64,000 bases of DNA from an uncultured Candidatus Saccharibacteria bacterium (lineage in GTDB: Bacteria > Patescibacteriota > JABMPQ01 > JAQVVF01): positions 329,852 to 393,851 of the forward strand of contig CAZNOH010000001.1 of NCBI GenBank assembly GCA_964574655.1, given 5' to 3'. The position numbers and the translations under genes were made by a program. This document shows positions 6,169 through 51,671 of this stretch, piece after piece. The first letter of the stretch is position 1. Each line of letters starts with the position of its first letter. The notes beneath the pieces are model-generated. The model was not told the origin of the DNA. It did not search any database and worked only from the letters and a program-made list of their open reading frames with translations.

Positions 6169-6972
6169 ATGCAAAAAATAGTTTCTGAAAAATTAAGTAA
6201 ATATAAAAATCTAGTTCAAAGTTTGTCTATCGGTGACTTTGGGAGATTGAGATTCGGAGAGGATAAAAGCGAAAGTCATATAAAACAGATTATTAAGAAT
6301 AGAGAAGAGTATTTTAAAAATTTTGGTGTTGATTTGAAAAATGTGGTAATGCAGAATCAAGTTCATGGAACTAATATTTCTTTAGTTTCTAAAAATGATT
6401 GCGGAAAAGGTGTATTTGGTCCCAAAACTTATGTTAAAGATAGTGATGGATTAATTACAAAAGATAGAAATGTTTTTTTAGTGTGCTTTACGGCTGATTG
6501 CTTGCCCGTTTCTTTTTATGACCATAAGCTAAAAATTTGTGGCATTGCTCATTCTGGCTGGAAAGGAACTTTAAATAATATTGTTGGCAAAATGATTAAT
6601 GAATTTGAAAAATTGGGCAGTAATGCAAAAGACATTATTGTTTATATTGGACCAGCAATTGGCAAATGTTGTTATGAAGTGAGCAAGGCTAAGGATAATA
6701 GAATCGCAAGATTTGAAAAATTCCTTCTTGGTCTGAAGCCTGCCTGCTCGGTAGGCAGGGCCAAGCCACAAGAAGAGTTGATTATAAAAAAAGAAAATAA
6801 AGCATATATAGACTTGAAAAAAATCGTTAGAGTAGAATTATTGGATGCCGATATTAAGAAAGAGAATATTGAAATCTCGGAAATTTGTACTAGTTGTGAT
6901 GAGCGGTTTCCGTCTTATCATCGAGATTTGGAATGCAAGGCTGATTTGTTGAGCGTGATTGGGATGAAATAG
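6169..6972 (+). CDS. pgeF: PgeF/YfiH family protein (DUF152 purine nucleoside phosphorylase / polyphenol oxidase-like)
   Basis: FLVCFTADCLPVSFYDHKLKICGIAHSGWKGTL...IGPAIGKCCYEV conserved Cys/His motifs; contains in-frame 52-nt palindrome at 6724..6775. Confidence 0.6.
   Translation: MQKIVSEKLSKYKNLVQSLSIGDFGRLRFGEDKSESHIKQIIKNREEYFKNFGVDLKNVVMQNQVHGTNISLVSKNDCGKGVFGPKTYVKDSDGLITKDRNVFLVCFTADCLPVSFYDHKLKICGIAHSGWKGTLNNIVGKMINEFEKLGSNAKDIIVYIGPAIGKCCYEVSKAKDNRIARFEKFLLGLKPACSVGRAKPQEELIIKKENKAYIDLKKIVRVELLDADIKKENIEISEICTSCDERFPSYHRDLECKADLLSVIGMK
6724..6775. repeat. intragenic in-frame GC-rich palindrome (CTTCTTGG..CCTGCCT-GCTCGGT-AGGCAGG..CCACAAGAAG) inside pgeF
   Basis: Nested stems read directly; encodes LLGLKPACSVGRAKPQEE; contains GTAG. 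Confidence 0.5.
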
Positions 6973-6990
6973 CTTGCGAAAAGCTTGTTA

Positions 6991-7020
6991 TTCGGATATT
7001 ATGATATTAAGATATTTGAT
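6991..7020 (+). promoter_or_regulatory. TTCGRATATT-type tandem array (ttcGGATATTAtGATATTAaGATATTTGAT) upstream of murD
   Basis: GATATT repeated at 8-9 nt period; same motif at 15062, 15145, 21466, 35681, 40329, 2657. Confidence 0.35.
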
Positions 7021-7132
7021 AATCGAAACTCGGTTTTGTACAAAATTGAAAGATAAATGTGATTAAGAACAGCTTGATATGAATATTGTGTTGTTTGATT
7101 TAGTAAAAAACCGAGTATCTTAAGTTATCTCT

Positions 7133-8620
7133 ATGACAATAGAAGATCTAAAAAAGAAAAATATCCATGTTTTAGGCGTTTCTGGTGCTGAAGGAAGCGC
7201 GGTTTTGGAATTTTTGGCAGATAATGGCATTAAGAATATTACTGCTCATGATTTTTGCGATGAAGATAAATTTAAAGAAAGTTTTTTTTCTTTTCATGAT
7301 AGGTTGAATAAAAAAGAAAAAGAATCAGCTTTTGAAAAAGTCTTCCGCCTTCGCCAAGGCTTTGGCGGACAAGGAAAAATAAAGTTTAATTATAAAGATA
7401 CTTATCTTGACCAAGTTGAAAAGGCTGATCTTGTTTTTGTGCCACAATCTTGGTTCAGATATCCACAAAATAGCGTTTTGCATCAATACAAAGGTAGGAT
7501 TGAATTTTCCAATATTACTAAATTGTATTTTCAATTTTGTAAAGGAAAAATAATCGCAGTAACTGGAACTTCTGGAAAATCAACAACATCGGCATTAGTG
7601 AATGATGTAATGAAGAGAGGTTACAAATCAGGCAAAGTTTATTTTACTGGCAATGATCGCGAAAATGTCCAAGTATTAAATGATATTTTTGAAATAAAAG
7701 AAAATGATATTCTAGTTTTGGAAGTCAGTAATAGACAATTGATGATTGACTTAAAAAAAAGTCCTCATATCGGAATTATTACTAATATTTCGCCAAATCA
7801 TATGGATGATCATAAGACTTTTACTGATTACATTACGACAAAAAGAAGTTTGCTTAGATATCAGAAAAAGGATGATTTTGCGATTTTGAATTTTGATAAT
7901 GATATTACAAAAGATATCGGCTTAGATATTGATTCTACTGTTTATTTTTTTTCAAGAAAAGGCAGAGTTGATCGAGGCGCATATGTCAAATTTAATGAAA
8001 TAACTATTTTAGATGGTGCAAGAGAAAAAAGAATTTGTTCAGTGTTAGATCTCAAAATTCCTGGTCCACATAATATTGAAAATTCTTTGGCTGCAAGTTT
8101 AGTTGGCTATCTGATGGGAATTAATACAAAAGACATTAGAGAAGCGTTGTTAGGGTTTAAAGGAATAAAGTCTAGGTTGGAATTAGTAAAAGAAATTGAT
8201 GGTATTTCATATATAGAAGATTCTTCAGCTTGTAATCCTGAAGGGGCTGCTGTTGCTGTTTCTTCTTTTAGAAAACCGATGCTATTGATTGCCGGAGGTT
8301 CAAGGAAAAAACCTTATCCCGGAGAGTTTGATCGCATGGCTGATTCTGTAATTAATTCTAAAGTAAAAATGGCATTCCTTATTGGAGAAAGAGCAGAAAC
8401 AATAAAGCAGGCTTTGAAAAATTCAAGCATTAGATTTCAGAAAGCTGGTCCAATAATTAAAATTTGTGATAGCTTGGAGGATGCAGTGATATCTGCTAGC
8501 AAGTCAGCAAAAAAGGGTGATATAGTAATTATGTCTCCTGGTTGCGAAAGTTTTGGAATGTTTATTGATTATAGAGACAGAGCAAAGCAGTTTAAACGTT
8601 TGGTTAAAAACCTGGGTTAG
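7133..8620 (+). CDS. murD: UDP-N-acetylmuramoylalanine--D-glutamate ligase
   Basis: Mur ligase P-loop VTGTSGKSTTSAL, position before ftsW; carries in-frame palindromic insert at 7342..7378. Confidence 0.75.
   Translation: MTIEDLKKKNIHVLGVSGAEGSAVLEFLADNGIKNITAHDFCDEDKFKESFFSFHDRLNKKEKESAFEKVFRLRQGFGGQGKIKFNYKDTYLDQVEKADLVFVPQSWFRYPQNSVLHQYKGRIEFSNITKLYFQFCKGKIIAVTGTSGKSTTSALVNDVMKRGYKSGKVYFTGNDRENVQVLNDIFEIKENDILVLEVSNRQLMIDLKKSPHIGIITNISPNHMDDHKTFTDYITTKRSLLRYQKKDDFAILNFDNDITKDIGLDIDSTVYFFSRKGRVDRGAYVKFNEITILDGAREKRICSVLDLKIPGPHNIENSLAASLVGYLMGINTKDIREALLGFKGIKSRLELVKEIDGISYIEDSSACNPEGAAVAVSSFRKPMLLIAGGSRKKPYPGEFDRMADSVINSKVKMAFLIGERAETIKQALKNSSIRFQKAGPIIKICDSLEDAVISASKSAKKGDIVIMSPGCESFGMFIDYRDRAKQFKRLVKNLG
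7342..7378. repeat. intragenic in-frame palindromic element (TCCGCC-TTCGCCAAGGCTTT-GGCGGA-CAAGGAAAA) in murD
   Basis: Near-identical copy in murC at 12821..12860 with compensatory stem change; encodes RLRQGFGGQGK. Confidence 0.65.
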
Positions 8621-8624
8621 ATGT

Positions 8625-8700
8625 TTTAAATACAAAAAATTCTAAATTCTAAACACAAAATTCTAAATAAACTCAAAAAATTAAATTACAAAATTGCGAT
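8625..8700. repeat. intergenic AAATTCTAAAT / AAATTACAAAAT repeat cluster (inverted copies at 8735..8765)
   Basis: aaattctaaattctaaacacaaaattctaaataaactcaaaaaattaaattacaaaattg; same units occur in-frame inside secA. Confidence 0.5.
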
Positions 8701-8776
8701 TATGGCGTTGGTTTTGGTAATTTTTATTTTGTATTTTTAATTTATTTAGAATTTAGGATTTAGAGTTTTTAAAAGA

Positions 8777-9883
8777 ATGCAAAAACAAAAACCAGATTAT
8801 GTTTTTCTTGTCGTAGCACTAATTTTAGTGGTTTTTGGTTTGATTATGTTGTCTTCAGCAAGCGTTGTTTTGTCGTATCAGAATTTTGGCAATAATTATT
8901 ATTATTTTACTCATCAGCTTTTGTTTGGAGTGCTGATCGGATTAGTTGCAATGTTTGTTTGTTACAAAATTGATTATCATAACTGGAAAAAGTTTGCAGC
9001 ATTGATGTTAATTCTGACTTTGGTTTTGTTGGTCTTGGTTTTTATTCCAGGACTTGGTTTTGAATATGGAGGTGCGAAAAGATGGGTCAATTTGGGTCCC
9101 TTTGGGACCATTCAACCAACAGAAATTGCAAAATTAACTTTTCTTTTATATTTGGCAACTTGGCTAGACAAGAGATCTCAAGGAATAAAGGATTGGAAAT
9201 ATAGCTTTGCGCCATTTTTGCTTATGCTTGCTGTTGTTGGAACTTTAATAGTATTGCAACCCGATGTTGGTACAATGACAGTAATTATCTTAATGTCAAT
9301 CGTTGTGTATTTTGTGGCAGGAGGTAAAATAACGCATTTGGCAGTTCTGGGAGTGGGCGCTGTCTTGATCATGATGCTGTTGATAAAAATTGCGCCTTAT
9401 AGAATGTCACGTTTTACAGTGTTTTTAAATCCAGAACTAGATCCGCAGGGCATTGGTTATCAGATAAATCAATCTTTATTGGCCGTAGGATCTGGCGGAA
9501 TTTTGGGTAGAGGCTTGGGCAAGAGTATACAGAAACATAATTATTTGCCAGAGGCGTCTGGTGATTCTATTTTTGCTGTCATTGCTGAAGAAATGGGTTT
9601 TATTAGAATAATTTTCTTGTTATTACTTTTCTTATTTTTTACGTATCTTGGATTTAGAATTGCAAAAAGAGCGCCAGACATGTATGGAAAACTAATCGCA
9701 GCAGGAATTACAGCATGGGTAGCTTTGCAGGCTTTGATTAATATGTCAGCAATGATCTCTTTGATTCCCTTGACTGGCATTCCTTTGCCTTTTATATCTT
9801 ATGGTGGATCAGCGATTATTTCTTTGTTAGCGGCGTGTGGGATAATGTTGAATATTTCAAAGCAGTCGAGAGTTTCGGATTAA
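8777..9883 (+). CDS. ftsW: cell division protein FtsW (SEDS family)
   Basis: 10 TM helices, conserved SEDS motifs (GGAKRWV, SGGILGRGLG, PEASGDSIFAVIAEE). Confidence 0.8.
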   Translation: MQKQKPDYVFLVVALILVVFGLIMLSSASVVLSYQNFGNNYYYFTHQLLFGVLIGLVAMFVCYKIDYHNWKKFAALMLILTLVLLVLVFIPGLGFEYGGAKRWVNLGPFGTIQPTEIAKLTFLLYLATWLDKRSQGIKDWKYSFAPFLLMLAVVGTLIVLQPDVGTMTVIILMSIVVYFVAGGKITHLAVLGVGAVLIMMLLIKIAPYRMSRFTVFLNPELDPQGIGYQINQSLLAVGSGGILGRGLGKSIQKHNYLPEASGDSIFAVIAEEMGFIRIIFLLLLFLFFTYLGFRIAKRAPDMYGKLIAAGITAWVALQALINMSAMISLIPLTGIPLPFISYGGSAIISLLAACGIMLNISKQSRVSD

Positions 9884-9932
9884 ATTCTCTAATTCGATCT
9901 CTAATTCGCCTAATAAAATCTCTAATAATTTA

Positions 9933-9965
9933 AATCCTGATCTTTTTGACTTCAGGGTTTTTTTG
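9933..9965 (+). terminator. rho-independent terminator after ftsW (hairpin AATCCTGA...TCAGGGTT + T7)
   Basis: Stem-loop followed by TTTTTTT. Confidence 0.45.
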
Positions 9966-9980
9966 TATTATATTGGAATT

Positions 9981-11588
9981 ATGAAAATACTTTTAGCAGG
10001 CGGAGGAACTGGCGGGCATATTATGCCTATTTTGGCTACAGTAAAGCAAATAATAAGAATAAATCCTGAGACGCAATTTTTATGGATAGGAACGAAAAAG
10101 GGTCCGGAAGCAAGAATTGCTCGCGATAATAAAATTGAGTTTAAGGCTGTTTTGGCTGGTAAAATGAGACGCTACGTTTCATTTTGGAATCTTGTTGATT
10201 TGATTAAGTTGCCTTTAGGTGTTGTGCAAGCTTATTTTAAAGTAAAAAAATTCAAGCCAGATGTTTGTTTTAGCAAGGGCGGATATGTAAGCGTTCCAAC
10301 TGTTCTTGCTTGCCATCATTTTAAAATTCCAGTTTTATTACATGAATCAGATATAATTGCTGGCAAATCAAATTTGTTTATGGCGAAATATGCCAATAAA
10401 ATTGCTTTAGGTTTTGAAGAAGGCAAGCAGAGTTTTAAAGATTATTCCAATAAAGTTGTTATTACTGGCAATCCAGTACGTGATGAAATTTTGTCAGCAA
10501 ATAGAGAAAATGGTTTAAAAGATTTTAAATTGAATAATAATAAGCCAGTTTTGTTGATAATGGGTGGGAGCCAAGGCGCTCAAAGAATAAATGAATTAAT
10601 TGGTCAAGTTTTGCCCAAGTTTTTGGAAAAATGGCAAATTATTCATCTTGTTGGTCCAGAGCATGGAAATCAAATTTTAGGAAATCTGGGTGCATTGGAG
10701 AATGATTATCATGTTTTTAAATTTTTGGATGGAAAAAAGATGGGCGAGGCTTTAGCAGTTGCGACATTAATAGTTTCAAGGTCTGGTGCTAATAGTTTGG
10801 CGGAAATTGCAGCATTGGGCAGACCAGCAATATTAATTCCATATCCTCATTCTGCAGGCGATCATCAAAAAATCAATGCTGATATTTATGCTAAAAATAA
10901 TGCAGCGATTGTCTTGGATGAGAAGGATCTGACTCCAGAAAAACTATTGAAAGAAATTAATAATTTGTTAATAGATAAAGGAAAATTAGAAAAATTGCAG
11001 TTAGCGATGTTAAAAATGTCTAATAAAGAGGCGAATAGCAAGTTAACAACTGAAATTTTAGCTTTGGCCAAATCAAAAAATGTTTTGGCTAAAAAGAATA
11101 AGAAGATTTTAGTGTTTGTAGAGGGTACTATTTTGATGCAAAAAAAAGCTTTTGGTGAAAGTCGTGATAAAATTGTTTTGCAGGTTAAAAATAACGATCC
11201 TTCAATTGATGATTTTGCTAATTATATTATGATTGGCCAAGCAAATTTGAAATTAAAAAAATGGCAAGAGCAAGGCGCAAAAATTTTGTATTTAACTTCA
11301 AGAACTTTGGCTGAAGAAGTTGCTCAGATCGGTGAAGTCTTGGCTAAAAATAATTTTCCAGAAGGTGATTTATTCTATAGAAAAGAAAATCAGCAATATA
11401 AAGATATTGTTGAATATATAAAGCCAGATATTTTGATTGAAGATGATTGTGAAAGTATTGGTGGAATAAAAGAGATGGCTATTTCTCAAGTTAAGCCAGA
11501 AATTAAAAATAATATTAAATTAATTGTTGTTAAAGAATTCGCTGGCATTGATAATCTTGTGGATGAAATTTCTGATTTGATGAAATAA
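9981..11588 (+). CDS. murG: UDP-N-acetylglucosamine--N-acetylmuramyl-(pentapeptide) pyrophosphoryl-undecaprenol N-acetylglucosamine transferase with ~180-aa C-terminal extension of unknown function
   Basis: MKILLAGGGTGGHIMPIL N-terminus; GT28 motifs (HESDIIAGKSN, GGSQGA); extra C-terminal domain after ~residue 365. Confidence 0.75.
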   Translation: MKILLAGGGTGGHIMPILATVKQIIRINPETQFLWIGTKKGPEARIARDNKIEFKAVLAGKMRRYVSFWNLVDLIKLPLGVVQAYFKVKKFKPDVCFSKGGYVSVPTVLACHHFKIPVLLHESDIIAGKSNLFMAKYANKIALGFEEGKQSFKDYSNKVVITGNPVRDEILSANRENGLKDFKLNNNKPVLLIMGGSQGAQRINELIGQVLPKFLEKWQIIHLVGPEHGNQILGNLGALENDYHVFKFLDGKKMGEALAVATLIVSRSGANSLAEIAALGRPAILIPYPHSAGDHQKINADIYAKNNAAIVLDEKDLTPEKLLKEINNLLIDKGKLEKLQLAMLKMSNKEANSKLTTEILALAKSKNVLAKKNKKILVFVEGTILMQKKAFGESRDKIVLQVKNNDPSIDDFANYIMIGQANLKLKKWQEQGAKILYLTSRTLAEEVAQIGEVLAKNNFPEGDLFYRKENQQYKDIVEYIKPDILIEDDCESIGGIKEMAISQVKPEIKNNIKLIVVKEFAGIDNLVDEISDLMK

Positions 11589-11609
11589 AAAACCCAAAAA
11601 ATATTTGGG

Positions 11610-11843
11610 TTAGTGCAAAGTAGAAGCAAGCGCAAGTTGAAGAGCTAAATTAGCTAAAATCAGTCCAGTGACAAGCGTTGGTTCGTTGATGCGAAGGGTG
11701 AGCTGACTTGCAATGTTGGAAGTTCCTTGGAAACTGATAACTTCAAGGCAAGGTTTACCGTCATCGAAAAAATTCAGAGGATTATTTAGACTTTTGACGA
11801 GCTGTTCGAGTTGCTTGCTAGTCAATTTGATTGTTGCGAGCAT
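11610..11843 (-). CDS. small hypothetical protein with hydrophobic C-terminus
   Basis: Strong SD GGAGGGGAAATG upstream of ATG; GC content higher than neighbours. Confidence 0.4.
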   Translation of the reverse strand: MLATIKLTSKQLEQLVKSLNNPLNFFDDGKPCLEVISFQGTSNIASQLTLRINEPTLVTGLILANLALQLALASTLH

Positions 11844-43409: not shown

Positions 43410-44456
43410 ATGGTATATCCGGAAATCGAAATTACAAAAGATGATTTGAAAAAAATAATTTATTTCATCTTAATGAAATTTAAAGGTGATCAGCTTCATA
43501 GGCAAGGTACGTCTGCTAAGCGTGATTTGATAGGAGGATATATTGAGCGCTGGTTTAACAAAATTGCTGAAACAGTTATTTTTGATAATTTATTAAACAA
43601 AAAAGATTACGAAGCGGTTTCTGATTATTTTATTTATTCAGATGACAAGAAGAATGTTCCAGATATACTTGGATTAAAAAAGCTTAAGAAAATATTGCCT
43701 TTTGTGAAATATAATAACGGTACTTGGGATACCATATCGGGAATGCCGAGAATTGAAGTTAAAGTTTTTAGAAAAGACCAAGCTCTTGTAAGCATTCGTG
43801 AGCCACAAATGATTGATGATTATTATGTTATTATTGATTCTGATTTGAACGGTGATTATTTAACTGCAATTTTTAGGGACGAGGTTTTTGAAGACAAGTT
43901 TTTTAATAGCTTAATTGTTGATGATGTGTTTATTGAAAGCGACATTGATAATAATATGATCGAACATATGAAAGTTATGCCAGCTAAAAAAATTGGAACA
44001 ATGAGGTTAATAGGTATTTATACAAAAAAAGAATTCAAAGATAATTCAATCTTATGTCGCAAGGGCGTTAGTCCGTATTATTTCGGATGGGCATCTAATA
44101 AAATTTTGGCTAGTAAATTACGATTAAACGAAAAATTGAATTTGGATAAAATGGGACGGTTTGTTTATAAGTATAATAGCTCATATGTTTGCTTGCCAGT
44201 GGCGATAGATAGTCCTAAAAATAATAAAATTACTGTATTAAAAAGAAATAAAGGATCGGTATATATCAATTCGTTAGAAAATATAAGTATTGGAGGCATA
44301 AAGTTAAAAGCAGGGGATATTTGCGTCGAGTTTAAAAAATTTGACCGAAGTTCAAAATGGGACGAGAATGTTTTACTGAAACAAACTCTTGAAAAGTATG
44401 GAAAAGATTCCACGAAAGATTTGATCGATCTTTTTGATGAGTTAGTGAGCAAGTAG
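43410..44456 (+). CDS. hypothetical protein; candidate restriction endonuclease partner of the adjacent C5-MTase
   Basis: Convergent with MTase gene with a 1-nt gap; possible PD..ExK-like segment IIDSD...FEDK; no recognised homology. Confidence 0.35.
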   Translation: MVYPEIEITKDDLKKIIYFILMKFKGDQLHRQGTSAKRDLIGGYIERWFNKIAETVIFDNLLNKKDYEAVSDYFIYSDDKKNVPDILGLKKLKKILPFVKYNNGTWDTISGMPRIEVKVFRKDQALVSIREPQMIDDYYVIIDSDLNGDYLTAIFRDEVFEDKFFNSLIVDDVFIESDIDNNMIEHMKVMPAKKIGTMRLIGIYTKKEFKDNSILCRKGVSPYYFGWASNKILASKLRLNEKLNLDKMGRFVYKYNSSYVCLPVAIDSPKNNKITVLKRNKGSVYINSLENISIGGIKLKAGDICVEFKKFDRSSKWDENVLLKQTLEKYGKDSTKDLIDLFDELVSK

Positions 44457-44457
44457 G

Positions 44458-46035
44458 TTATTCCATTGCTTTTTTTATTTGCTTTGCGACTGCTTCGACG
44501 ACAGGTACGCTTACAGAATTTCCTAGTTGTTTATATAGTGCTGAATCTGAAATTTCTGGCAATTTGAAATTAGCCGGAAATCCTTGAATTTTTGCGCATT
44601 CTAGCGGAGTCAACTTTCTGATGCCTTTTTTATCTTTAATGATTGGGACATTGTGTCCGCCAGTTCCCATATTCGCTGTCAATGTCGGGCATACGTCGCT
44701 TTTATTCTCTCGAACATACTGTCGGCGCCATTGATAAACCTTATTGCTGTCTTTTATAAAATTTTTTAATTTTTTAAATAGCGGTTTTCCGTTATAATAA
44801 TATTTTTCAGGCACATTTTTTTCTAGCAGATCAGTAATTTTTTTTGTGAGTTTTACTGGCTTTGGAAATTCAAATTTGTCGCAATAATCTTTATTTTTGA
44901 AGCCAGCAATGTAAATGCGTTCGCGATTTTGGGGAATATTTCCATATTCCATGCTGTTCAAAACTTTAGCTTTTAAATAATAGCCAAGACTTTCCAATGT
45001 TTCTTGAATTGTTTTAAAAGTTTTTCCATCGTCATGGCTTTTCAGATTTTTTACATTTTCAAGCAGGAATCCCTCTGGTTTTCTAGCATCAAGTATTCTT
45101 GCAATATCAAAAAATAAATTGCCTCTGCCTTTTTTATCATTGAATCCTTGCCTATATCCAGCAATGGAAAATGCTTGGCAGGGAAATCCGCCGAGAAGAA
45201 AATCGAATTTTGGCAGATCATCAATGCCAATTTTTCTTATATCTTCAACTACAAGTTTTGATTTTTTGAAATTTAAATCATAAGTAAGCTTGCATTTTTC
45301 GTCAAAATCATTAGAAAATACCGTATTGAATCCAGCTTTTTCAAAACCAAGCCTAATTCCGCCGACTCCTGCAAAAAGATCGATAGTTTTAAATCCGTGT
45401 TTGATTTTTTTTGCAATTATTTTTTCTGGTTCTTTGGAAAAATTACTGATAACTTGTATTACAACGCCTCTTACTTCAACTTCGTTTCTGAAAAAGGGGA
45501 GCATATTTTGATTTCTTGGTTGAAGTCGGAATCTGTTTTGTTCTCTGTAAAGCTTTTTAAGCGTTGCTTCATTGTCATCAATGATAGCAACGACAGTTTG
45601 GCCATTTTCTGCTGAAGACTGTTTTTTTATAATTACAGTATCGCCATCAAATATTCCTTCATCGATCATGCTATCGCCAACAACGCGAAGAGCATAATAG
45701 TCCTTCTTATTTTTGATAGATGGATTAAATACTGGAATATTTTCTTGAAAATTTTCGATGGCTTCAATCGGTTTGCTGGCAGCTATATTTCCAATAACCG
45801 GAATATCGATAACTGTTCTCTGTTTTTCTTTTGGCGTAATGTCGCGCGCGGAATTATTATTTTTTGAGAGATAGCCTTTTTTTATCAGAGTATTAATATG
45901 TTCATGGATTGTTGATACTGCCTTAAGCTTCAGTTTCTTTCTTATTTCTTCGATTGTTGGCGAAATTCCGTTTTCTGTGCGATAGGCATTAATAAAATCG
46001 AATACTAACTTTTGTTTTTGTGTTAAATTTTGCAT
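44458..46035 (-). CDS. fusion protein: full-length LexA-like repressor (wHTH + S24 autopeptidase) fused to C5-cytosine DNA methyltransferase
   Basis: LexA: LTQKQKLVFDFI..., VIGNIAASKP (cleavage-loop position), RVVGDSM (Ser), ATLKKL (Lys). MTase: DLFAGVGGIRLGF (I), GGFPCQAFS (IV), ENV (VI), QNRERIYI (VIII), GNSVSVPV (X). Confidence 0.8.
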   Translation of the reverse strand: MQNLTQKQKLVFDFINAYRTENGISPTIEEIRKKLKLKAVSTIHEHINTLIKKGYLSKNNNSARDITPKEKQRTVIDIPVIGNIAASKPIEAIENFQENIPVFNPSIKNKKDYYALRVVGDSMIDEGIFDGDTVIIKKQSSAENGQTVVAIIDDNEATLKKLYREQNRFRLQPRNQNMLPFFRNEVEVRGVVIQVISNFSKEPEKIIAKKIKHGFKTIDLFAGVGGIRLGFEKAGFNTVFSNDFDEKCKLTYDLNFKKSKLVVEDIRKIGIDDLPKFDFLLGGFPCQAFSIAGYRQGFNDKKGRGNLFFDIARILDARKPEGFLLENVKNLKSHDDGKTFKTIQETLESLGYYLKAKVLNSMEYGNIPQNRERIYIAGFKNKDYCDKFEFPKPVKLTKKITDLLEKNVPEKYYYNGKPLFKKLKNFIKDSNKVYQWRRQYVRENKSDVCPTLTANMGTGGHNVPIIKDKKGIRKLTPLECAKIQGFPANFKLPEISDSALYKQLGNSVSVPVVEAVAKQIKKAME

Positions 46036-46131
46036 GTTTGTTTTATAAAATAATTTGTGCTACAATTTGATTATAACCGAAAATTAACCGAAATTCAAAG
46101 CGGTAGTTATCCACAGCTTTAATTAAATTTT

Positions 46132-46533
46132 ATGGACGTTTTTTCTAAAAAGAAGAGAAGCGAGATAATGTCGAAGATTCGTTATGAGAATACGGAAGTT
46201 GAGAGGATTATTTTTAGTGGATTGATAAAAAGAAAGATATATTTTCAGAAGCATTATAAAAAGGCTATTGGTTCGCCAGATATTGCTTTTCCGAGAAAAA
46301 AGATAGCAATATTTATCGATGGTGATTTCTGGCATGGAAGGCATTTTGCGAAAACAGAAAAAAGGCTTCCTAAAGAGTATTGGAGAGAAAAGATAAAGTC
46401 AAATATTTTGAGAGATAAAAGGAATCGATCAAAATTGAAAAGACAGGGTTGGAAGGTATTGAGGTTTTGGGAAGGCGAGATAAAGATGCGACCGAAAAAG
46501 ATAATAGGTCTCTTGATTATGTTTATAAAGTAG
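46132..46533 (+). CDS. vsr: very-short-patch repair endonuclease
   Basis: RSEIMSKIRYENTEVE...GSPDIAFPRKKIAIFIDGDFWHG. Confidence 0.75.
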   Translation: MDVFSKKKRSEIMSKIRYENTEVERIIFSGLIKRKIYFQKHYKKAIGSPDIAFPRKKIAIFIDGDFWHGRHFAKTEKRLPKEYWREKIKSNILRDKRNRSKLKRQGWKVLRFWEGEIKMRPKKIIGLLIMFIK

Positions 46534-46578
46534 TTTTTTAGAAAAATATATTTTTGACTAAATTAGATTACATCTATA

Positions 46579-48438
46579 ATGTCTACAAAAAAACAAATAA
46601 AGGAAATTCTTGAAAATATTGATAATGTTGCTGAAAACTCTAAATATTTGCATTCAGTAGCAGATGAATATCGAAAAGTTAGAGATTTGTATTTTGTGAA
46701 ATTGAAAGACGAAAAGAGTGCCAAAAGAATTCAATCGTTAATTGACGTGTTGAATTTTGTGATTTCTGACAATATGCTAAAAGAAGTATCGTCAGGAGTG
46801 TCAGAAAATGGAATATGTTGGAAATATCCTGATATTTCATTTTTTACTGAAAATGGTTTTAAAGAAGTGGAACAGGCATTTAAGACTACAAAAAGTATTA
46901 AACTAAAAGCAAGGTATTCAGATTTTTTTTGGTTATCCAAGAAGGATTATAAAAAAGCCAGAATCGCATTTGATAATTATTTCATTTTAATTAAGAAATA
47001 TGAAGAAGCGGACAAGAAAAATCCAATTGGTTATTTTGGACTTGATGTTTTAGATTCTACTAGAAGAGCTTTTCAAATATCAAAGAGTATTAGTTATCGA
47101 CAATCAGACATTATAAAAGAGATAGAGCGTTTGAGTTTGAATTTTAATTCAAAGAGTAGTTCGAAGTATAAACTAGTAATTGATCTTGTTTCAATAGCAC
47201 TCAATAACAAAAAAGAGTTTAAGAGTGAAGAGTTTTGGCAAGGATTAGTTCTTATTTGTGAGAAATATTATAAAGAATTGAGTAAAGACAAAAATTGGTA
47301 TTTTTCTAGGGATTATCTAAATAATGCTAAAAAAATTGAATTGATGATCTTTAGTAAGAAAAGCAAAAAGTGGGATAAATTGGTTGCAAAAAGTTATCTA
47401 TGCGAGGCTGATTATCATGGAATGCAAGAAAGTTTGGCAGAGCTACCTTCTTTATTGAGCTCAATTGAAGAATATAAAAAGTTAAAAGATTTCAGGAAAA
47501 CTGAAGAGTTAAAGAAACGCTACGAAAAAGCATCCAAAAATGTGAGACTTAAAGAATTAAGAACAGAGATAAATATTTCGAGAATTGTTACTGTTGCCAA
47601 AAATCAAGCAAATGAGTTGTGCAAACAGCGACCCGACGAAGTTTTTAAATATTTACTCTTGAGTCCGGATTTATTTCCGATATACAATAGTATAGAAATT
47701 GAGGCGAAAAAAAATGAAAAAAGATTTGTGTTCATGCATCTAGGCAGTCAAATTGTTTTTGATCAAAAGATGAATATTGCTCGAAGATATTGCTCTAAAG
47801 AAGAAAAACATTTTTTTGCAATTTTACGACAATTTGGAGTGTCTTTTATAATTAACAAGATTTATACAGATATTATTTTTGAGAAGTTAATCGAGAAAAA
47901 TATTTTGACATGGGTTAACACAAGTTCTTTCCTAAGAAAATATTGTTGGTACAAAAATGTTTATGAAGTAAAGAATGATAAAGGAATAACTTTATTTAAA
48001 TCACAAAAATGGCTTGATCTTATGGCACCCGGAATAAAATTATATTTAAATAACGCGAAAAAATATTTAAGAAAAAAAGATAAAAAAATTCCTTATTCAG
48101 AAATTATTTTGGCATCAGATTCATTGGCTATGAAAATAGAGGGAGTGATTAGAGAAATCTTCCGCAAATTGGGTAGATCTACTTTTAAGGTTAAAAGAAA
48201 GGGTGACGAGAACATTACAGTGGAAAAAGATTTAAATGATTTTTTGATTGATAATTTTTCAGAGCAAATGTTTTCTAAGGATTTGACATTATTAATGAGA
48301 TTCTTATTAATAGAACCATCGGGTTATAATCTAAGAAACAACATAGGACATTGCTTGATTCAAAAAGAAGATTATAATTTGTCAAATTTGCATTTTTTAT
48401 TTTTGATTTTGCTCAGATTGGGTAATTATAAATTTTAA
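46579..48438 (+). CDS. large hypothetical protein with C-terminal HEPN-like Rx4H motif (LRNNIGH); candidate defense protein
   Basis: 619-aa ORF, no P-loop; 12-nt gap to downstream Cas4-like nuclease gene. Confidence 0.4.
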   Translation: MSTKKQIKEILENIDNVAENSKYLHSVADEYRKVRDLYFVKLKDEKSAKRIQSLIDVLNFVISDNMLKEVSSGVSENGICWKYPDISFFTENGFKEVEQAFKTTKSIKLKARYSDFFWLSKKDYKKARIAFDNYFILIKKYEEADKKNPIGYFGLDVLDSTRRAFQISKSISYRQSDIIKEIERLSLNFNSKSSSKYKLVIDLVSIALNNKKEFKSEEFWQGLVLICEKYYKELSKDKNWYFSRDYLNNAKKIELMIFSKKSKKWDKLVAKSYLCEADYHGMQESLAELPSLLSSIEEYKKLKDFRKTEELKKRYEKASKNVRLKELRTEINISRIVTVAKNQANELCKQRPDEVFKYLLLSPDLFPIYNSIEIEAKKNEKRFVFMHLGSQIVFDQKMNIARRYCSKEEKHFFAILRQFGVSFIINKIYTDIIFEKLIEKNILTWVNTSSFLRKYCWYKNVYEVKNDKGITLFKSQKWLDLMAPGIKLYLNNAKKYLRKKDKKIPYSEIILASDSLAMKIEGVIREIFRKLGRSTFKVKRKGDENITVEKDLNDFLIDNFSEQMFSKDLTLLMRFLLIEPSGYNLRNNIGHCLIQKEDYNLSNLHFLFLILLRLGNYKF

Positions 48439-48450
48439 AAATATATATTT

Positions 48451-49209
48451 ATGTCCACATATTACAAATCCAATCGTACAAAAAATATCTACGATCCAAA
48501 AAGCAAAGAGCCATACAAATTATCTCGCTCAAAGATTGAGAGTTTTTTGAGATGTCCGAAATGTTTTTATTTAGACAGGCGTCTTGGAGTTGGCCAGCCA
48601 CCTAGTTATCCTTTGAATTTGAATACTGCAGTTGATCATCTTCTCAAAAAAGAATTTGATTTGCACAGAGCAAAACAAAAAGCGCATCCGTTGATGAAAG
48701 CTTATGGGATTAAAGCAGTTCCTTTTGCTCATGAGATGATTAATGAGTGGCGAGAAAATTTTAAAGGCGTTAGATATCATCACAAGTCGACCAATTTCAT
48801 TATTTCTGGAGCAGTTGATGATTTATGGAAAGATACAAAAGGCAAGATTATTGTTGTTGATTACAAGGCGACAAGCAAGGATGCAAAAGTAACTTTGGAT
48901 GCAGAATGGCAAGGCGGATACAAAAGGCAGATGGAAATATATCAGTGGTTGCTTCGCAAGAATGGTTTGAAGGTTTCTGATACTGGTTATTTTGTTTATT
49001 GCAATGGAAAGAGAGACAGAAAAGCATTTGATGCAAAATTAGAATTTGATATTGATTTATTGCCATACGAGGGCGATGCTTCTTGGATTGAAAAGACTTT
49101 GAAAGATATTAAAAAATGTTTGAATGGAAAAATGCCGAAATCAGATGATGATTGCGATTATTGTAATTATCGGAATGCAGTTGAAATCGCAGAAAAACGC
49201 AGAAGCTAA
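48451..49209 (+). CDS. Cas4/RecB-family PD-(D/E)xK nuclease with four-Cys cluster
   Basis: N-terminal RCPKCFYL (CPRxxY-like), VDDLW...IIVVDYKAT (D..DxK), QMEIYQ (QxxxY), C-terminal CDYCNY. Confidence 0.65.
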   Translation: MSTYYKSNRTKNIYDPKSKEPYKLSRSKIESFLRCPKCFYLDRRLGVGQPPSYPLNLNTAVDHLLKKEFDLHRAKQKAHPLMKAYGIKAVPFAHEMINEWRENFKGVRYHHKSTNFIISGAVDDLWKDTKGKIIVVDYKATSKDAKVTLDAEWQGGYKRQMEIYQWLLRKNGLKVSDTGYFVYCNGKRDRKAFDAKLEFDIDLLPYEGDASWIEKTLKDIKKCLNGKMPKSDDDCDYCNYRNAVEIAEKRRS

Positions 49210-49237
49210 TGCAGAAAATACGGAATTTATTAAAACT

Positions 49238-49513
49238 ATGTATTATCTTTATATTTTAGAATGCGCTGATAAGACTTTATATACTGGAATTACAACAGAT
49301 TTGAAGCGAAGATTGATTGAGCATAATAATTCTAAATTAGGTGCAAAATATACATGTGCTAGAAGACCAGTAAAATTAGTTTATTCTAAAAAATTTAAAA
49401 CCAGATCATCTGCTAGTAAGGAAGAAGCTAGAATTAAAAAATTGAAAAAATCGGATAAATTGGAATTGATTCGTAGGGGTTCAACCCTGTCATTCGACAG
49501 GGCAAGTATTTGA
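49238..49513 (+). CDS. GIY-YIG nuclease domain protein (YhbQ/UPF0213-like); 3' end overlaps REP element
   Basis: YYLYILECADKTLYTGITTDLKRRLIEHN...EEARIKKLK. Confidence 0.6.
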   Translation: MYYLYILECADKTLYTGITTDLKRRLIEHNNSKLGAKYTCARRPVKLVYSKKFKTRSSASKEEARIKKLKKSDKLELIRRGSTLSFDRASI

Positions 49514-49521
49514 ACCCCTAC
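49473..49521. repeat. REP element GTAGGGGTTCAA-[CCCTGTCATTCGACAGGG CAAGTAT]-TTGAACCCCTAC
   Basis: GTAG...CTAC ends; same family as 51063 and 51375. Confidence 0.65.
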
Positions 49522-49536
49522 TGTTTTATTTTTGTC

Positions 49537-49565
49537 TTGAAATTTGGTCTGAATTGGCGTAATAT
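49537..49565 (+). promoter_or_regulatory. sigma70-like promoter for tRNA-Gln: -35 TTGAAA, 17-nt spacer, -10 TAATAT
   Basis: Read directly; ends 12 nt before tRNA 5' end. Confidence 0.45.
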
Positions 49566-49577
49566 GATCTTGATTAT

Positions 49578-49648
49578 TCCGGGATCATCTAATGGTAGGA
49601 TAGCAGGTTCTGGACCTGCTTATCTTGGTTCGAATCCAAGTCCCGGAG
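49578..49648 (+). tRNA. tRNA-Gln (anticodon CTG)
   Basis: Acceptor TCCGGGA/TCCCGGA 7 bp, anticodon stem GCAGG/CCTGC with loop TTCTGGA, T-arm CTTGG-TTCGAAT-CCAAG; manual fold, D-arm short. Confidence 0.65.
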
Positions 49649-49662
49649 TGAAATGTAATTTT

Positions 49663-51045
49663 ATGTTAAAACACCACTTTTTCACGCCAGAGTACATGAA
49701 TGTTTTTGATCTGGATCAAATCTACATGACGAGCTCAATGTGGCATGACACAAAAATGAAAGATACTTGGGCGACTTTTGATCTGATTGTCAGAGACATG
49801 CCAAAGAATAGAAACTTTTTAATTTTTACTGGCTTGGAAGAAATGGCAACACATCTGCAAAATTGGAAATATACTGATGAGCAAATTGCAATGCTTAAGA
49901 AAATGAAATTAATTTCTGATAATTTTGCAAAATATTTAAAGAATTTAAAATTTGAAGGCGATGTTTATGCAATGCCAGAAGGCAGTGTTTTTTTTAATAA
50001 TGAGCCAGTTGTCAGAATTACAGCGCCTTTAATTCAATGCAATCTGTTGACAGCATTTTTAATTACTTCTTTGAGTTCTAATACAATTTTTTCTTCAAAA
50101 TTTGTAAGATCAGTTATTGCTGCCAAAGGTAAAAGTGTAATTGGTCCAAGCTCAGTGAGAGCGCAAGGTTTTGAATCTGCTTTCAAAGCGCAAAGAAGCG
50201 CCTATATTGTTGGAAGCAAACAAGTGCCTTCTCCGGTTGTTAGAGATTTTCTGAACATACCAATGGGCGATAACGTAACAATTGCTTATCATGCTTTTAT
50301 TAATTCTTATGAATCTGAACAAGAAGCGATGCAAGTTGCCGCAGATCATGCAAAAGTTGATCTTGCATTAATGGTGGATACTTATGATTATGATAAAGGT
50401 ATTGAAAACGCAATCGTAATTGGAAAGCAGTATAAAAGAATGGGCAAGAATTTAAAAATAGTCGTGGATAGCGGTGATCTATATGAGAATGTAAGCAAAG
50501 TTAGAAAAAGGCTTGATAAGGTTGGTTTGCAAAATATTAGAATTATAGTTGCGAGCAATTTAGATGAATATAAAATTACTGATTTAATGAAAAAGAAAAT
50601 TCCTGCTAATATTTTTATCGTTGGTACTGAAGCTGTGACGTCATCAGATGTTCCAAAACTAGAAGTTGTTTATAAAATTTCTGAAATAATTGAAAAAAGT
50701 GGCAAGATAATTAATAAAATGAAATTGTCGCCAGGCAAGATGAGCTTGCCAGGCCGAAAACAGATTTATAGAAAATTTAAAAATAATTATTTTGAAAAAG
50801 ATGTTATTGGTTTGGAAGGCGAGAAGGGATTGGGCGAGCCATTATTGAAACCGATATTTAAAAAAGGAAAATTAGTTCATGATTTGCCAAGTGTTTTAAA
50901 AATTAGAGATTTTGTGAAAGAACAATTAAAACAGTTGCCAAAAAGATATTTAGAAATTGAAAAGACTTATAAATATCCAGTTGAAATTAGTGATAAATTA
51001 AATAAATTACTTGATAAAACAAAAAAAGAAATTCAGGCGAGATAA
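49663..51045 (+). CDS. pncB: nicotinate phosphoribosyltransferase
   Basis: FDLDQIYMTSSMWH N-term, VDTYD and VVDSGDL motifs; upstream part of ORF-track ORF overlaps tRNA and is rejected. Confidence 0.6.
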   Translation: MLKHHFFTPEYMNVFDLDQIYMTSSMWHDTKMKDTWATFDLIVRDMPKNRNFLIFTGLEEMATHLQNWKYTDEQIAMLKKMKLISDNFAKYLKNLKFEGDVYAMPEGSVFFNNEPVVRITAPLIQCNLLTAFLITSLSSNTIFSSKFVRSVIAAKGKSVIGPSSVRAQGFESAFKAQRSAYIVGSKQVPSPVVRDFLNIPMGDNVTIAYHAFINSYESEQEAMQVAADHAKVDLALMVDTYDYDKGIENAIVIGKQYKRMGKNLKIVVDSGDLYENVSKVRKRLDKVGLQNIRIIVASNLDEYKITDLMKKKIPANIFIVGTEAVTSSDVPKLEVVYKISEIIEKSGKIINKMKLSPGKMSLPGRKQIYRKFKNNYFEKDVIGLEGEKGLGEPLLKPIFKKGKLVHDLPSVLKIRDFVKEQLKQLPKRYLEIEKTYKYPVEISDKLNKLLDKTKKEIQAR

Positions 51046-51095: not shown

Positions 51096-51671
51096 ATGGA
51101 ATATAATTTTTCAAAACGTCGTCGTAAATTAATTAGGTTGAAAGGATTTGATTATTCTAGCGATAATTGCTACTTTATAACAATTTGTACGAAACAAAAG
51201 GAATGTTTGTTTGGCAATATTATAAATCAGAAAATGGTATTAAATAATGCCGGAGTTATTGCAAAAAAATATTGGTTAGAAATTCCAAAGCATTATCAAT
51301 ATATAATTTTAGACGAATATATTGTGATGCCAAATCATATTCATGGAATTTTGGTGATCGATAAAAAATATCCGGTAGGGGTTCAATATATTGAACCCCT
51401 ACGCCAAAATAAATTTCAAAAAATTATATCTGGTTCAATTGGTGCGATCGTTCGTGGTTATAAAATCGGAGTGACAAAATGGTATAGACAAAATACAAGA
51501 TATAAAATTGTTTGGCAAAGATTATTTTATGACCACATTATCCGCGACGAACGATCGTTAAATATTATTCGAAATTATATTAAAGAAAATCCCAAAAATT
51601 GGTTATTTGATAGGAACAATATCGAGGACATCGGATTATTGAATGCAATAATTGAAATCAAAAAATTATAA
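51096..51671 (+). mobile_element. REP-associated tyrosine transposase (RAYT, IS200/IS605-like Y1 HuH transposase)
   Basis: IRLKGFDYSSDNCYFITICTKQKECLFG, HuH MPNHIHGIL, C-terminal WQRLFYDHIIRDERSLNIIRNYIKENP signature; REP copy embedded in-frame at 51375..51402. Confidence 0.75.
51375..51402. repeat. REP element GTAGGGGTTCAATATATTGAACCCCTAC inserted in-frame within RAYT CDS (encodes VGVQYIEPLR)
   Basis: Perfect 12-bp palindrome arms; frame checked (offset 279 from start). Confidence 0.65.

Follow-up and report, generated by a model that had tools for sequence, protein, structure and literature searches.

This analysis concerns two adjoining genes in a 64,000-nucleotide stretch of DNA from an uncultured Candidatus Saccharibacteria bacterium (contig CAZNOH010000001.1, positions 329,852 to 393,851 of the forward strand), referred to throughout as the window, which is AT-rich (about 32% GC) and has a positive GC skew throughout. 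Gene A encodes a protein of 619 amino acids (aa) and gene B a protein of 252 aa; both lie on the forward strand and are separated by 12 nt, exactly as the initial annotation, made from the sequence alone, had described them. That annotation had further proposed that the two genes form a new defence module, pairing a HEPN-motif protein with a stand-alone Cas4-like nuclease. The features of the two genes, and of the segment to which A belongs, are as follows.

46579..48438, forward strand: gene A, 619 aa, DUF7380 + DUF4209 (HEPN) architecture, PADLOC PDC-S39 family (open reading frame (ORF), Pfam, PADLOC, AlphaFold2)
46843..47106, forward strand: DUF7380 region of A (aa 89-176), start of the helical-repeat scaffold
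48094..48435, forward strand: C-terminal HEPN-like domain of A (about aa 506-619), which holds the invariant residues S515, K519, E521 and R525
48334..48351, forward strand: Rx4H motif of A (R586-N-N-I-G-H591), predicted HEPN catalytic dyad (position, family invariance)
48451..49209, forward strand: gene B, 252 aa, solo Cas4-like / RecB-family PD-(D/E)XK nuclease (PF12705, PF01930, Foldseek)
46125..48424, no strand assigned: variable cassette comprising Vsr and A, with no counterpart in a close relative (blastn breakpoints)

The defining result is that the two genes do not travel together. Among 89 loci that carry B homologues, 9 of them metagenomic and 80 from species genomes, none contained a relative of A. 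The reciprocal search was equally empty, as neither tblastn (E<=1e-3) nor a B-family hidden Markov model applied to all ORFs of at least 60 aa (E<=1) detected the B family in any of 87 A-family loci, and a B-like gene beside the relatives of A was rejected as a candidate on this basis. The two-gene module is refuted by this lack of co-conservation in both directions, and a closely related locus has B without A. We consider it probable that A and B are chance neighbours, brought side by side through cassette turnover, rather than the components of a dedicated system.

The closely related locus is contig JAQVVF010000004.1 from a Patescibacteria metagenome-assembled genome (MAG), designated L017. 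The backbone that it has in common with the window consists of prfB-ftsE-ftsX, a LexA-Dcm fusion gene, B, a GIY-YIG gene, tRNA-Gln, a RAYT-like gene and a response regulator, at an amino-acid identity of about 80-92%, while Vsr and A are both missing. In blastn alignments, window positions 44464-46124 correspond to L017 positions 7416-9076 and window positions 48425-49186 to L017 positions 9969-10736; the 2.3 kb between these blocks, which encodes Vsr and A, is unmatched, and an unrelated 0.9-kb segment stands in its place. Homology restarts 26 nt 5' of the B start codon, and B is the best-conserved coding DNA segment in the comparison (90.8%, versus 81-85% for the other coding blocks). Because the breakpoints flank Vsr and A, B is placed in the backbone and A in a swappable cassette, within a neighbourhood that is overall an insertion/deletion mosaic.

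The remaining features around the pair include an adjoining methylase gene and its companions on one side and a tRNA on the other.

46132..46533, forward strand: Vsr very-short-patch-repair endonuclease (Pfam Vsr E 3.7e-20; TIGR00632 106 bits, above cut-off)
44458..46035, reverse strand: fusion of a LexA DNA-binding domain, an S24 peptidase and a C5 cytosine methylase (LexA-Dcm), 525 aa (Pfam, NCBIfam)
43410..44456, forward strand: 348-aa orphan ORF in the restriction-endonuclease slot (no Pfam, PADLOC or NCBIfam match)
49235..49513, forward strand: small GIY-YIG protein 3' of B (Pfam GIY-YIG E 4.9e-18)
49577..49649, forward strand: tRNA-Gln(CTG) (ARAGORN; kept in L017)
51096-51671, forward strand: RAYT-like gene (Y1_Tnp, IS200-like, below the gathering score; 80% identical in L017)

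Most of the island that the initial annotation had outlined is borne out, namely the C5 methylase, Vsr, GIY-YIG protein and tRNA-Gln, although the RAYT assignment reduces to a Y1_Tnp match below threshold (E 1.7e-3; 18.9 bits, gathering score 23). The restriction-modification (R-M) system described there likewise stands in part: the methylase and Vsr are present, but the ORF at 43410-44456 offered as its restriction component matched nothing in Pfam, PADLOC or NCBIfam. Vsr is a companion of the adjoining C5 methylase, and LexA-Dcm is transcribed divergently from Vsr, A and B. Beside the same methylase (90% identical) the restriction slot holds non-homologous genes in the two genomes, at 43410-44456 (forward strand) in the window and 6564-7403 (forward strand) in L017, where the 279-aa product matches the PADLOC model REase_II (4.5e-11).

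The LexA-Dcm fusion is 90% identical in L017 and 76% identical in a further locus, L092, its coordinates being 44458-46035 in the window, 7407-8987 in L017 and 6470-8089 in L092 (reverse strand in each). L013/L014 carry an analogous fusion, LexA-S24-Dam (D12) (L013 1-1505), and each of these LexA-methylase fusions lies a few kb 5' of the Cas4-like nuclease. Fusion of an SOS-type repressor to an R-M methylase could link the control of methylation and restriction to DNA damage. The divergent intergenic stretch separating lexA-dcm from the variable cassette is kept in three genomes (window 46036-46131, L017 8988-9106, L092 about 8090-8140) and contains the direct repeat AACCGAAA-N5-AACCGAAA as well as a perfect DnaA-box-like TTATCCACA (TTATGCACA in L017); it may serve as the operator of the LexA fusion.

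In L017 the slot that Vsr and A occupy in the window is filled by a 288-aa orphan (9107-9973, forward strand), which has no Pfam match and ends in NNRSVVFHGG, also an Rx4H, and may be a different small HEPN-like effector. Directly 3' of the L017 nuclease lies a gene with a RhuM/Fic domain (10740-11738, forward strand), which overlaps the nuclease stop codon by 11 nt; both flanks of the nuclease are therefore flexible. Two gene boundaries downstream of B were revised. The GIY-YIG ORF had been listed at 49124-49513, overlapping the 3' end of B by 86 nt, and its start was moved to 49235 because the L017 homologue begins MYYLYILE. The listed NAPRTase ORF (49510-51045, with a TTG at 49510) crosses tRNA-Gln, so its true start must lie 3' of 49649; L017 has no NAPRTase gene at the corresponding position.

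Gene A had been described as lacking any recognisable domain other than a C-terminal LRNNIGH motif. The motif is present at aa 585-591, with the Rx4H spanning R586 to H591, but two Pfam domains also pass their gathering scores: DUF7380 at aa 89-176 (E 2.5e-9, 37.6 bits; gathering score 27) and DUF4209 at aa 538-613 (E 2.5e-9, 37.5 bits; gathering score 22.3), both reproduced on separate fragments. In addition, A matches the two PADLOC models of the PDC-S39 family, PDLC05011 (E 5e-30) and PDLC05012 (E 1.1e-23), with the best stretch spanning aa 8-403. An exhaustive HMMER scan recovered 819 representative relatives, of which 129 scored E<=1e-30; most of the 819 are collinear proteins of about 600-630 aa, to which A aligns end to end. 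A word-indexed search returned 22 close homologues. On its sequence, A is a divergent Patescibacteria branch of the catalogued single-gene candidate family PDC-S39 and not an orphan. With that family it shares matches to both models and both Pfam domains, the end-to-end alignment, an invariant Rx4H and the absence of a conserved partner; it differs in being only 21-31% identical to most representatives, and the family itself is a candidate.

An Rx4H motif carries little weight by itself, since about 0.28 such motifs are expected in A from its composition and A has two (at R382 and R586), of which one is conserved. In a 60-sequence family alignment (21-67% identity) R586 and H591 are invariant, whereas the R382 motif is not conserved; S515, K519, E521, R525, D395, W457, P367 and Y599 are invariant in the same sequences. 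The AlphaFold2 model of A is confident (pLDDT 94.2, pTM 0.80) and nearly all helical with a few small hairpins, and depicts an HEPN-like C-terminal domain joined to TPR-like repeats. Foldseek found no solved relative of the model at E<=1e-3, only weak TPR-like matches, and a profile search of the A family against the PDB returned designed helical repeats alone. Three independent lines, the profile match, the invariance of the motif and the fold, identify the C-terminal domain of A as HEPN, in agreement with the initial annotation of A as an HEPN-type and likely defence protein. Relative to other HEPN RNases such as the HEPN-MNT toxins, C6orf70/ERMARD and Abi-type proteins, A is distinguished by a single HEPN domain fused to a helical-repeat body of about 500 aa; A also has no MNT antitoxin or other partner, and its RNase activity is predicted.

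DUF4209 was assigned to the HEPN superfamily as the C6orf70/ERMARD family by Anantharaman et al. 2013 (PMC3710099), who noted bacterial members in R-M-related operons and a conserved eukaryotic member with a predicted role in RNA degradation. A literature search for DUF7380 returned no papers. No phenotype for PDC-S39 is reported in the searchable literature, where mentions are confined to PADLOC-based inventories; examples are its listing with the defence loci of P. aeruginosa PAO1 and its strain-specific occurrence in an E. coli O157:H7 strain. A had no matches in phages, and its plasmid matches were confined to five distant DUF4209 proteins encoded on plasmids of Hymenobacter; nothing indicates that the window copy is plasmid- or phage-borne.

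The surroundings of A relatives vary widely, with 208 neighbours in 80 A-family loci falling into 178 clusters among which only clade-local partners recur. Of the families that these neighbours match, the 25 most frequent include no PD-(D/E)XK family, and the genes 3' of the three best-sampled relatives encode a phosphodiesterase, a glycosyltransferase and a 236-aa orphan. A is a stand-alone gene without a fixed partner. The window's 348-aa ORF was rejected as a conserved partner, having no homologue in any fetched locus.

Within the clade nearest to A (43-51% identity), a protein of about 236 aa with a weak DUF4145 signal (best E 2.8e-3) recurs directly 3' (L007 7898-8608, L099 2542-3258, L100 4600-5181, L103 1840-2556, L104 1797-2513), and one of about 365 aa with a zinc-ribbon-like segment recurs 5' (L001 3863-4963, L007 4872-5969). 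The two may constitute a clade-specific multi-gene variant of PDC-S39, and neither is a nuclease by profile. The smaller was considered as a nuclease analogous to B and rejected, as it showed only sub-threshold DUF4145/HEPN-like signals and no PADLOC match.

Gene B matches PF12705 (PDDEXK_1) with E 2.9e-17 (63.9 bits) and PF01930 (Cas4) with E 1.6e-6 (28.7 bits, cut-off 22.7), far under its PF12705 score, and its 46.5 bits against the Cas4 equivalog TIGR00372 fall below the cut-off of 65. All of the nuclease hallmarks previously noted were located, with CPKCFYL beginning at aa 35, DYK at 137-139, QMEIY at 160-164 and CDYC at 235-238. The catalytic core is intact: the motifs D, (D/E)xK and QxxxY are all present, and D123/D124, D137-Y138-K139 and Q160-x3-Y164 are among the 74 positions that are at least 97% conserved in 198 sequences. 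The count of four cysteines given earlier requires correction to six, C35, C38, C223, C235 and C238 being at least 99% conserved and C184 94% conserved. Their layout, CxxC ... C-x11-C-x2-C, has a spacing unlike that of Cas4 and AddB, in which one N-terminal Cys is combined with CxxCx5C.

The structure model of B (pLDDT 81) gave Foldseek matches to AdnA (2e-5), human EXO5 (2e-4), MGME1 (4e-4), RecE (4e-4), Cas4 SSO0001 (9e-4) and AddB (1e-3), as well as to Argonaute-associated Cas4-family proteins, while a sequence search against the PDB returned nothing at E<=1. AdnA/AddB and EXO5/MGME1 provide the best structural matches (E 2e-5 to 4e-4) and have the catalytic D...D-x-K...QxxxY core in common with B; however, B lacks both a fused helicase and a helicase partner conserved nearby, and the TM-scores are modest (0.33-0.46 on the query). 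B also departs from Cas4 proper in missing the equivalog score and in having neither cas1/cas2 nor a CRISPR array nearby. No CRISPR-like array was found in the 64-kb window, and a scan of eight ORFs between 43.4 and 51.7 kb revealed no cas gene, which upholds the description of B as a stand-alone Cas4-like nuclease.

B homologues are abundant. A word-indexed search returned at least 8000, many of them 70-93% identical and annotated as Parcubacteria, Yanofskybacteria or Paceibacterota, and B is present in at least 589 species-representative genomes from many Patescibacteria lineages at 61-92% identity. Solo-Cas4 and Cas4-like PF12705 genes are known to be over-represented in Candidate Phyla Radiation (CPR) bacteria that lack CRISPR, where they are mostly inherited vertically and show no arms-race signature (Hudaiberdiev et al. 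2017, PMC5704561). B resembles this group in standing alone in a CRISPR-less host with a small genome, in its strong conservation, in combining RecB motifs with conserved cysteines and in its apparently vertical inheritance; it differs in preferring PF12705 to PF01930, in scoring under the TIGR00372 cut-off and in its cysteine layout. B is a conserved, resident, solo Cas4-like nuclease of the RecB family, apparently vertically inherited across Patescibacteria and belonging to a group already described. With A in the catalogued PDC-S39 family, the suggestion of a possibly new system falls away on both sides: A extends a known candidate family by one new, divergent member, and B belongs to a group that is already known and widespread.

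The immediate neighbours of B are not fixed: the 48 upstream genes fall into 42 clusters and the 47 downstream genes likewise into 42. Most are unrelated housekeeping genes such as those for cyclophilin, pseudouridine synthases, MscL, MreB, aminoacyl-tRNA synthetases and a sigma factor. One copy adjoins uvrBAC, and the GIY-YIG gene follows B in only 3 of the 89 loci. In the MAG CAZVMH01 there are two B copies (L064 and L076), 85% identical, each lying 3' of a different type I R-M system; they may be either true paralogues or the product of a mixed bin.

What lies upstream of B is nevertheless patterned. In the near-clade loci, defined as long contigs with a B at least 72% identical (n=8), R-M or defence genes occur within 5 kb upstream in all eight, and these genes differ from locus to locus: the cassettes comprise SNF2/PLD with an MmeI-like protein, type I systems, LexA-Dam with DUF5655, Dcm with HNH, an N4/N6 methylase, and LexA-Dcm. 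Three of them retain downstream synteny, in the form of genes for an LCAT-like lipase and a DUF4012 protein. We extended the count with tblastn, using twelve R-M query proteins on the 80 species loci (L017-L096) and searching equal sequence per side (362 kb versus 376 kb). Matches within 6 kb were present upstream of B in 11 of 61 loci and downstream in none (Fisher p 6e-4), a bias that persists when the two loci that supplied queries are left out (Fisher p 1.2e-3) and that is to be read in the light of the strong strand bias of these genomes and of the possibly mixed bin of the MAG with two copies. The R-M-linked copies of B cluster phylogenetically (permutation p 0.002). Movement of B with particular R-M types was considered and rejected, as B copies that are 92-94% identical flank different cassettes. 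Such closely similar copies with different cassettes suggest that B stays put and the cassettes turn over, and we read the region just upstream of B in its clade as a variable defence slot, or hotspot. Like known defence-island hotspots, it places differing R-M and defence cassettes at the same site beside a conserved gene, with sharp breakpoints; it differs in that the enrichment is one-sided, attached to one conserved gene and phylum-wide, and in that conservation does not extend to the second flank. Neither an integrase nor an att site was identified.

Several observations weigh against the interpretation of A and B as chance neighbours at a passive hotspot. The two genes share a strand and are only 12 nt apart, and the gap contains no terminator-like site, so A and B are probably co-transcribed and a local functional interaction is conceivable; a promoter and terminator scan was uninformative in this AT-rich DNA, its sole terminator-like site lying inside the tRNA. 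B sits operon-like at the 3' end of many R-M cassettes, mostly with gaps of -26 to +9 nt, and such orientation-specific placement could reflect function. The R-M queries themselves came from upstream regions and may favour upstream matches, and the defence role of PDC-S39 rests on genomic context. The spacing, the nuclease-type character of both proteins and the R-M-rich surroundings are also what would commend A and B as a dedicated defence or abortive-infection system uniting an HEPN RNase with a Cas4-like DNase. We nevertheless hold this to be extremely improbable: besides the reciprocal absence of co-occurrence, and the roughly 90% identical L017 with its B and no A, the A family has no PD-(D/E)XK neighbour, PADLOC models it as a single-gene candidate, and at least 8000 close B homologues stand against 22 for A in the word-indexed searches. 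Co-transcription at this locus is an outcome of the cassette insertion site and not evidence for a shared function.

A broader role for B draws on the same upstream bias. B could be a generic accessory of DNA-targeting defence operons across Patescibacteria, coupled to any upstream cassette, LexA-Dcm/Vsr/A included, and closing many different R-M and defence operons as their 3'-terminal gene. In that role B could finish the degradation of restricted phage DNA or mend the breaks of self-restriction, as RecBCD/AddAB do elsewhere, in organisms without those enzymes, and the window cassette might be driven from the conserved divergent promoter of the LexA fusion. The upstream-only R-M enrichment, the co-directional and tightly packed layouts with B usually 3'-terminal, the R-M or defence genes upstream in all eight near-clade loci, the MAG in which each of two copies follows a type I system, and a fold closest to end-resection nucleases are in keeping with this idea, under which the A-B pair would be one case of any defence cassette joined to a resident end-nuclease. 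We regard it as unlikely all the same, given that in about 80% of B loci the upstream genes are housekeeping or unrelated ones (such as cyclophilin, MscL and MreB), one copy lies beside uvrBAC and nearly identical copies adjoin different cassettes, while co-orientation may reflect the strong strand bias of the genomes and the two-copy MAG may be a mixed bin. As for A, it could be a housekeeping enzyme of RNA processing or decay, like eukaryotic ERMARD/C6orf70, with no part in defence. The predicted RNA-degradation role of the eukaryotic DUF4209 protein and the lack of any reported experimental defence phenotype for PDC-S39 would fit, yet the patchy distribution of A (22 close homologues, and missing from a relative about 90% identical), its position in a swapped cassette by a methylase and Vsr, its widely varying neighbours, the strain specificity of the family in E. 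coli O157 and its listing with the defence loci of P. aeruginosa PAO1 make this very improbable.

Under the preferred reading of A and B as chance neighbours, A would have entered together with Vsr into the 2.3-kb slot between LexA-Dcm and B. We infer that A is a sensor-effector RNase of the HEPN type, whose helical-repeat body would sense an infection cue or hold the enzyme inactive. HEPN enzymes form their composite Rx4H site by pairing of the domains, and on activation the HEPN domains of A would pair, probably in a homodimer, to create a composite RNase site; the ensuing cleavage of cellular or phage RNA would lead to growth arrest and abortive infection. B would act as a DNA-end exonuclease with a cysteine-bound metal cluster, presumably Fe-S, in repair, recombination or the degradation of broken DNA.

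A two-gene system of an HEPN protein and a Cas4-like nuclease would have been a new class of defence, and the evidence says otherwise. What the locus offers instead is a test case for PDC-S39, in the form of a presence/absence genome pair, a confident model and a set of invariant residues (R586, H591, S515, K519, E521 and R525). It also indicates that candidate defence genes of the HEPN type are carried and exchanged by CPR bacteria with genomes well under 1 Mb, the identical protein being found on a 654-kb contig. Finally, the one-sided R-M enrichment provides a lead on the role of solo Cas4-like nucleases in small, CRISPR-less genomes, which may include an effect on the outcome of restriction.

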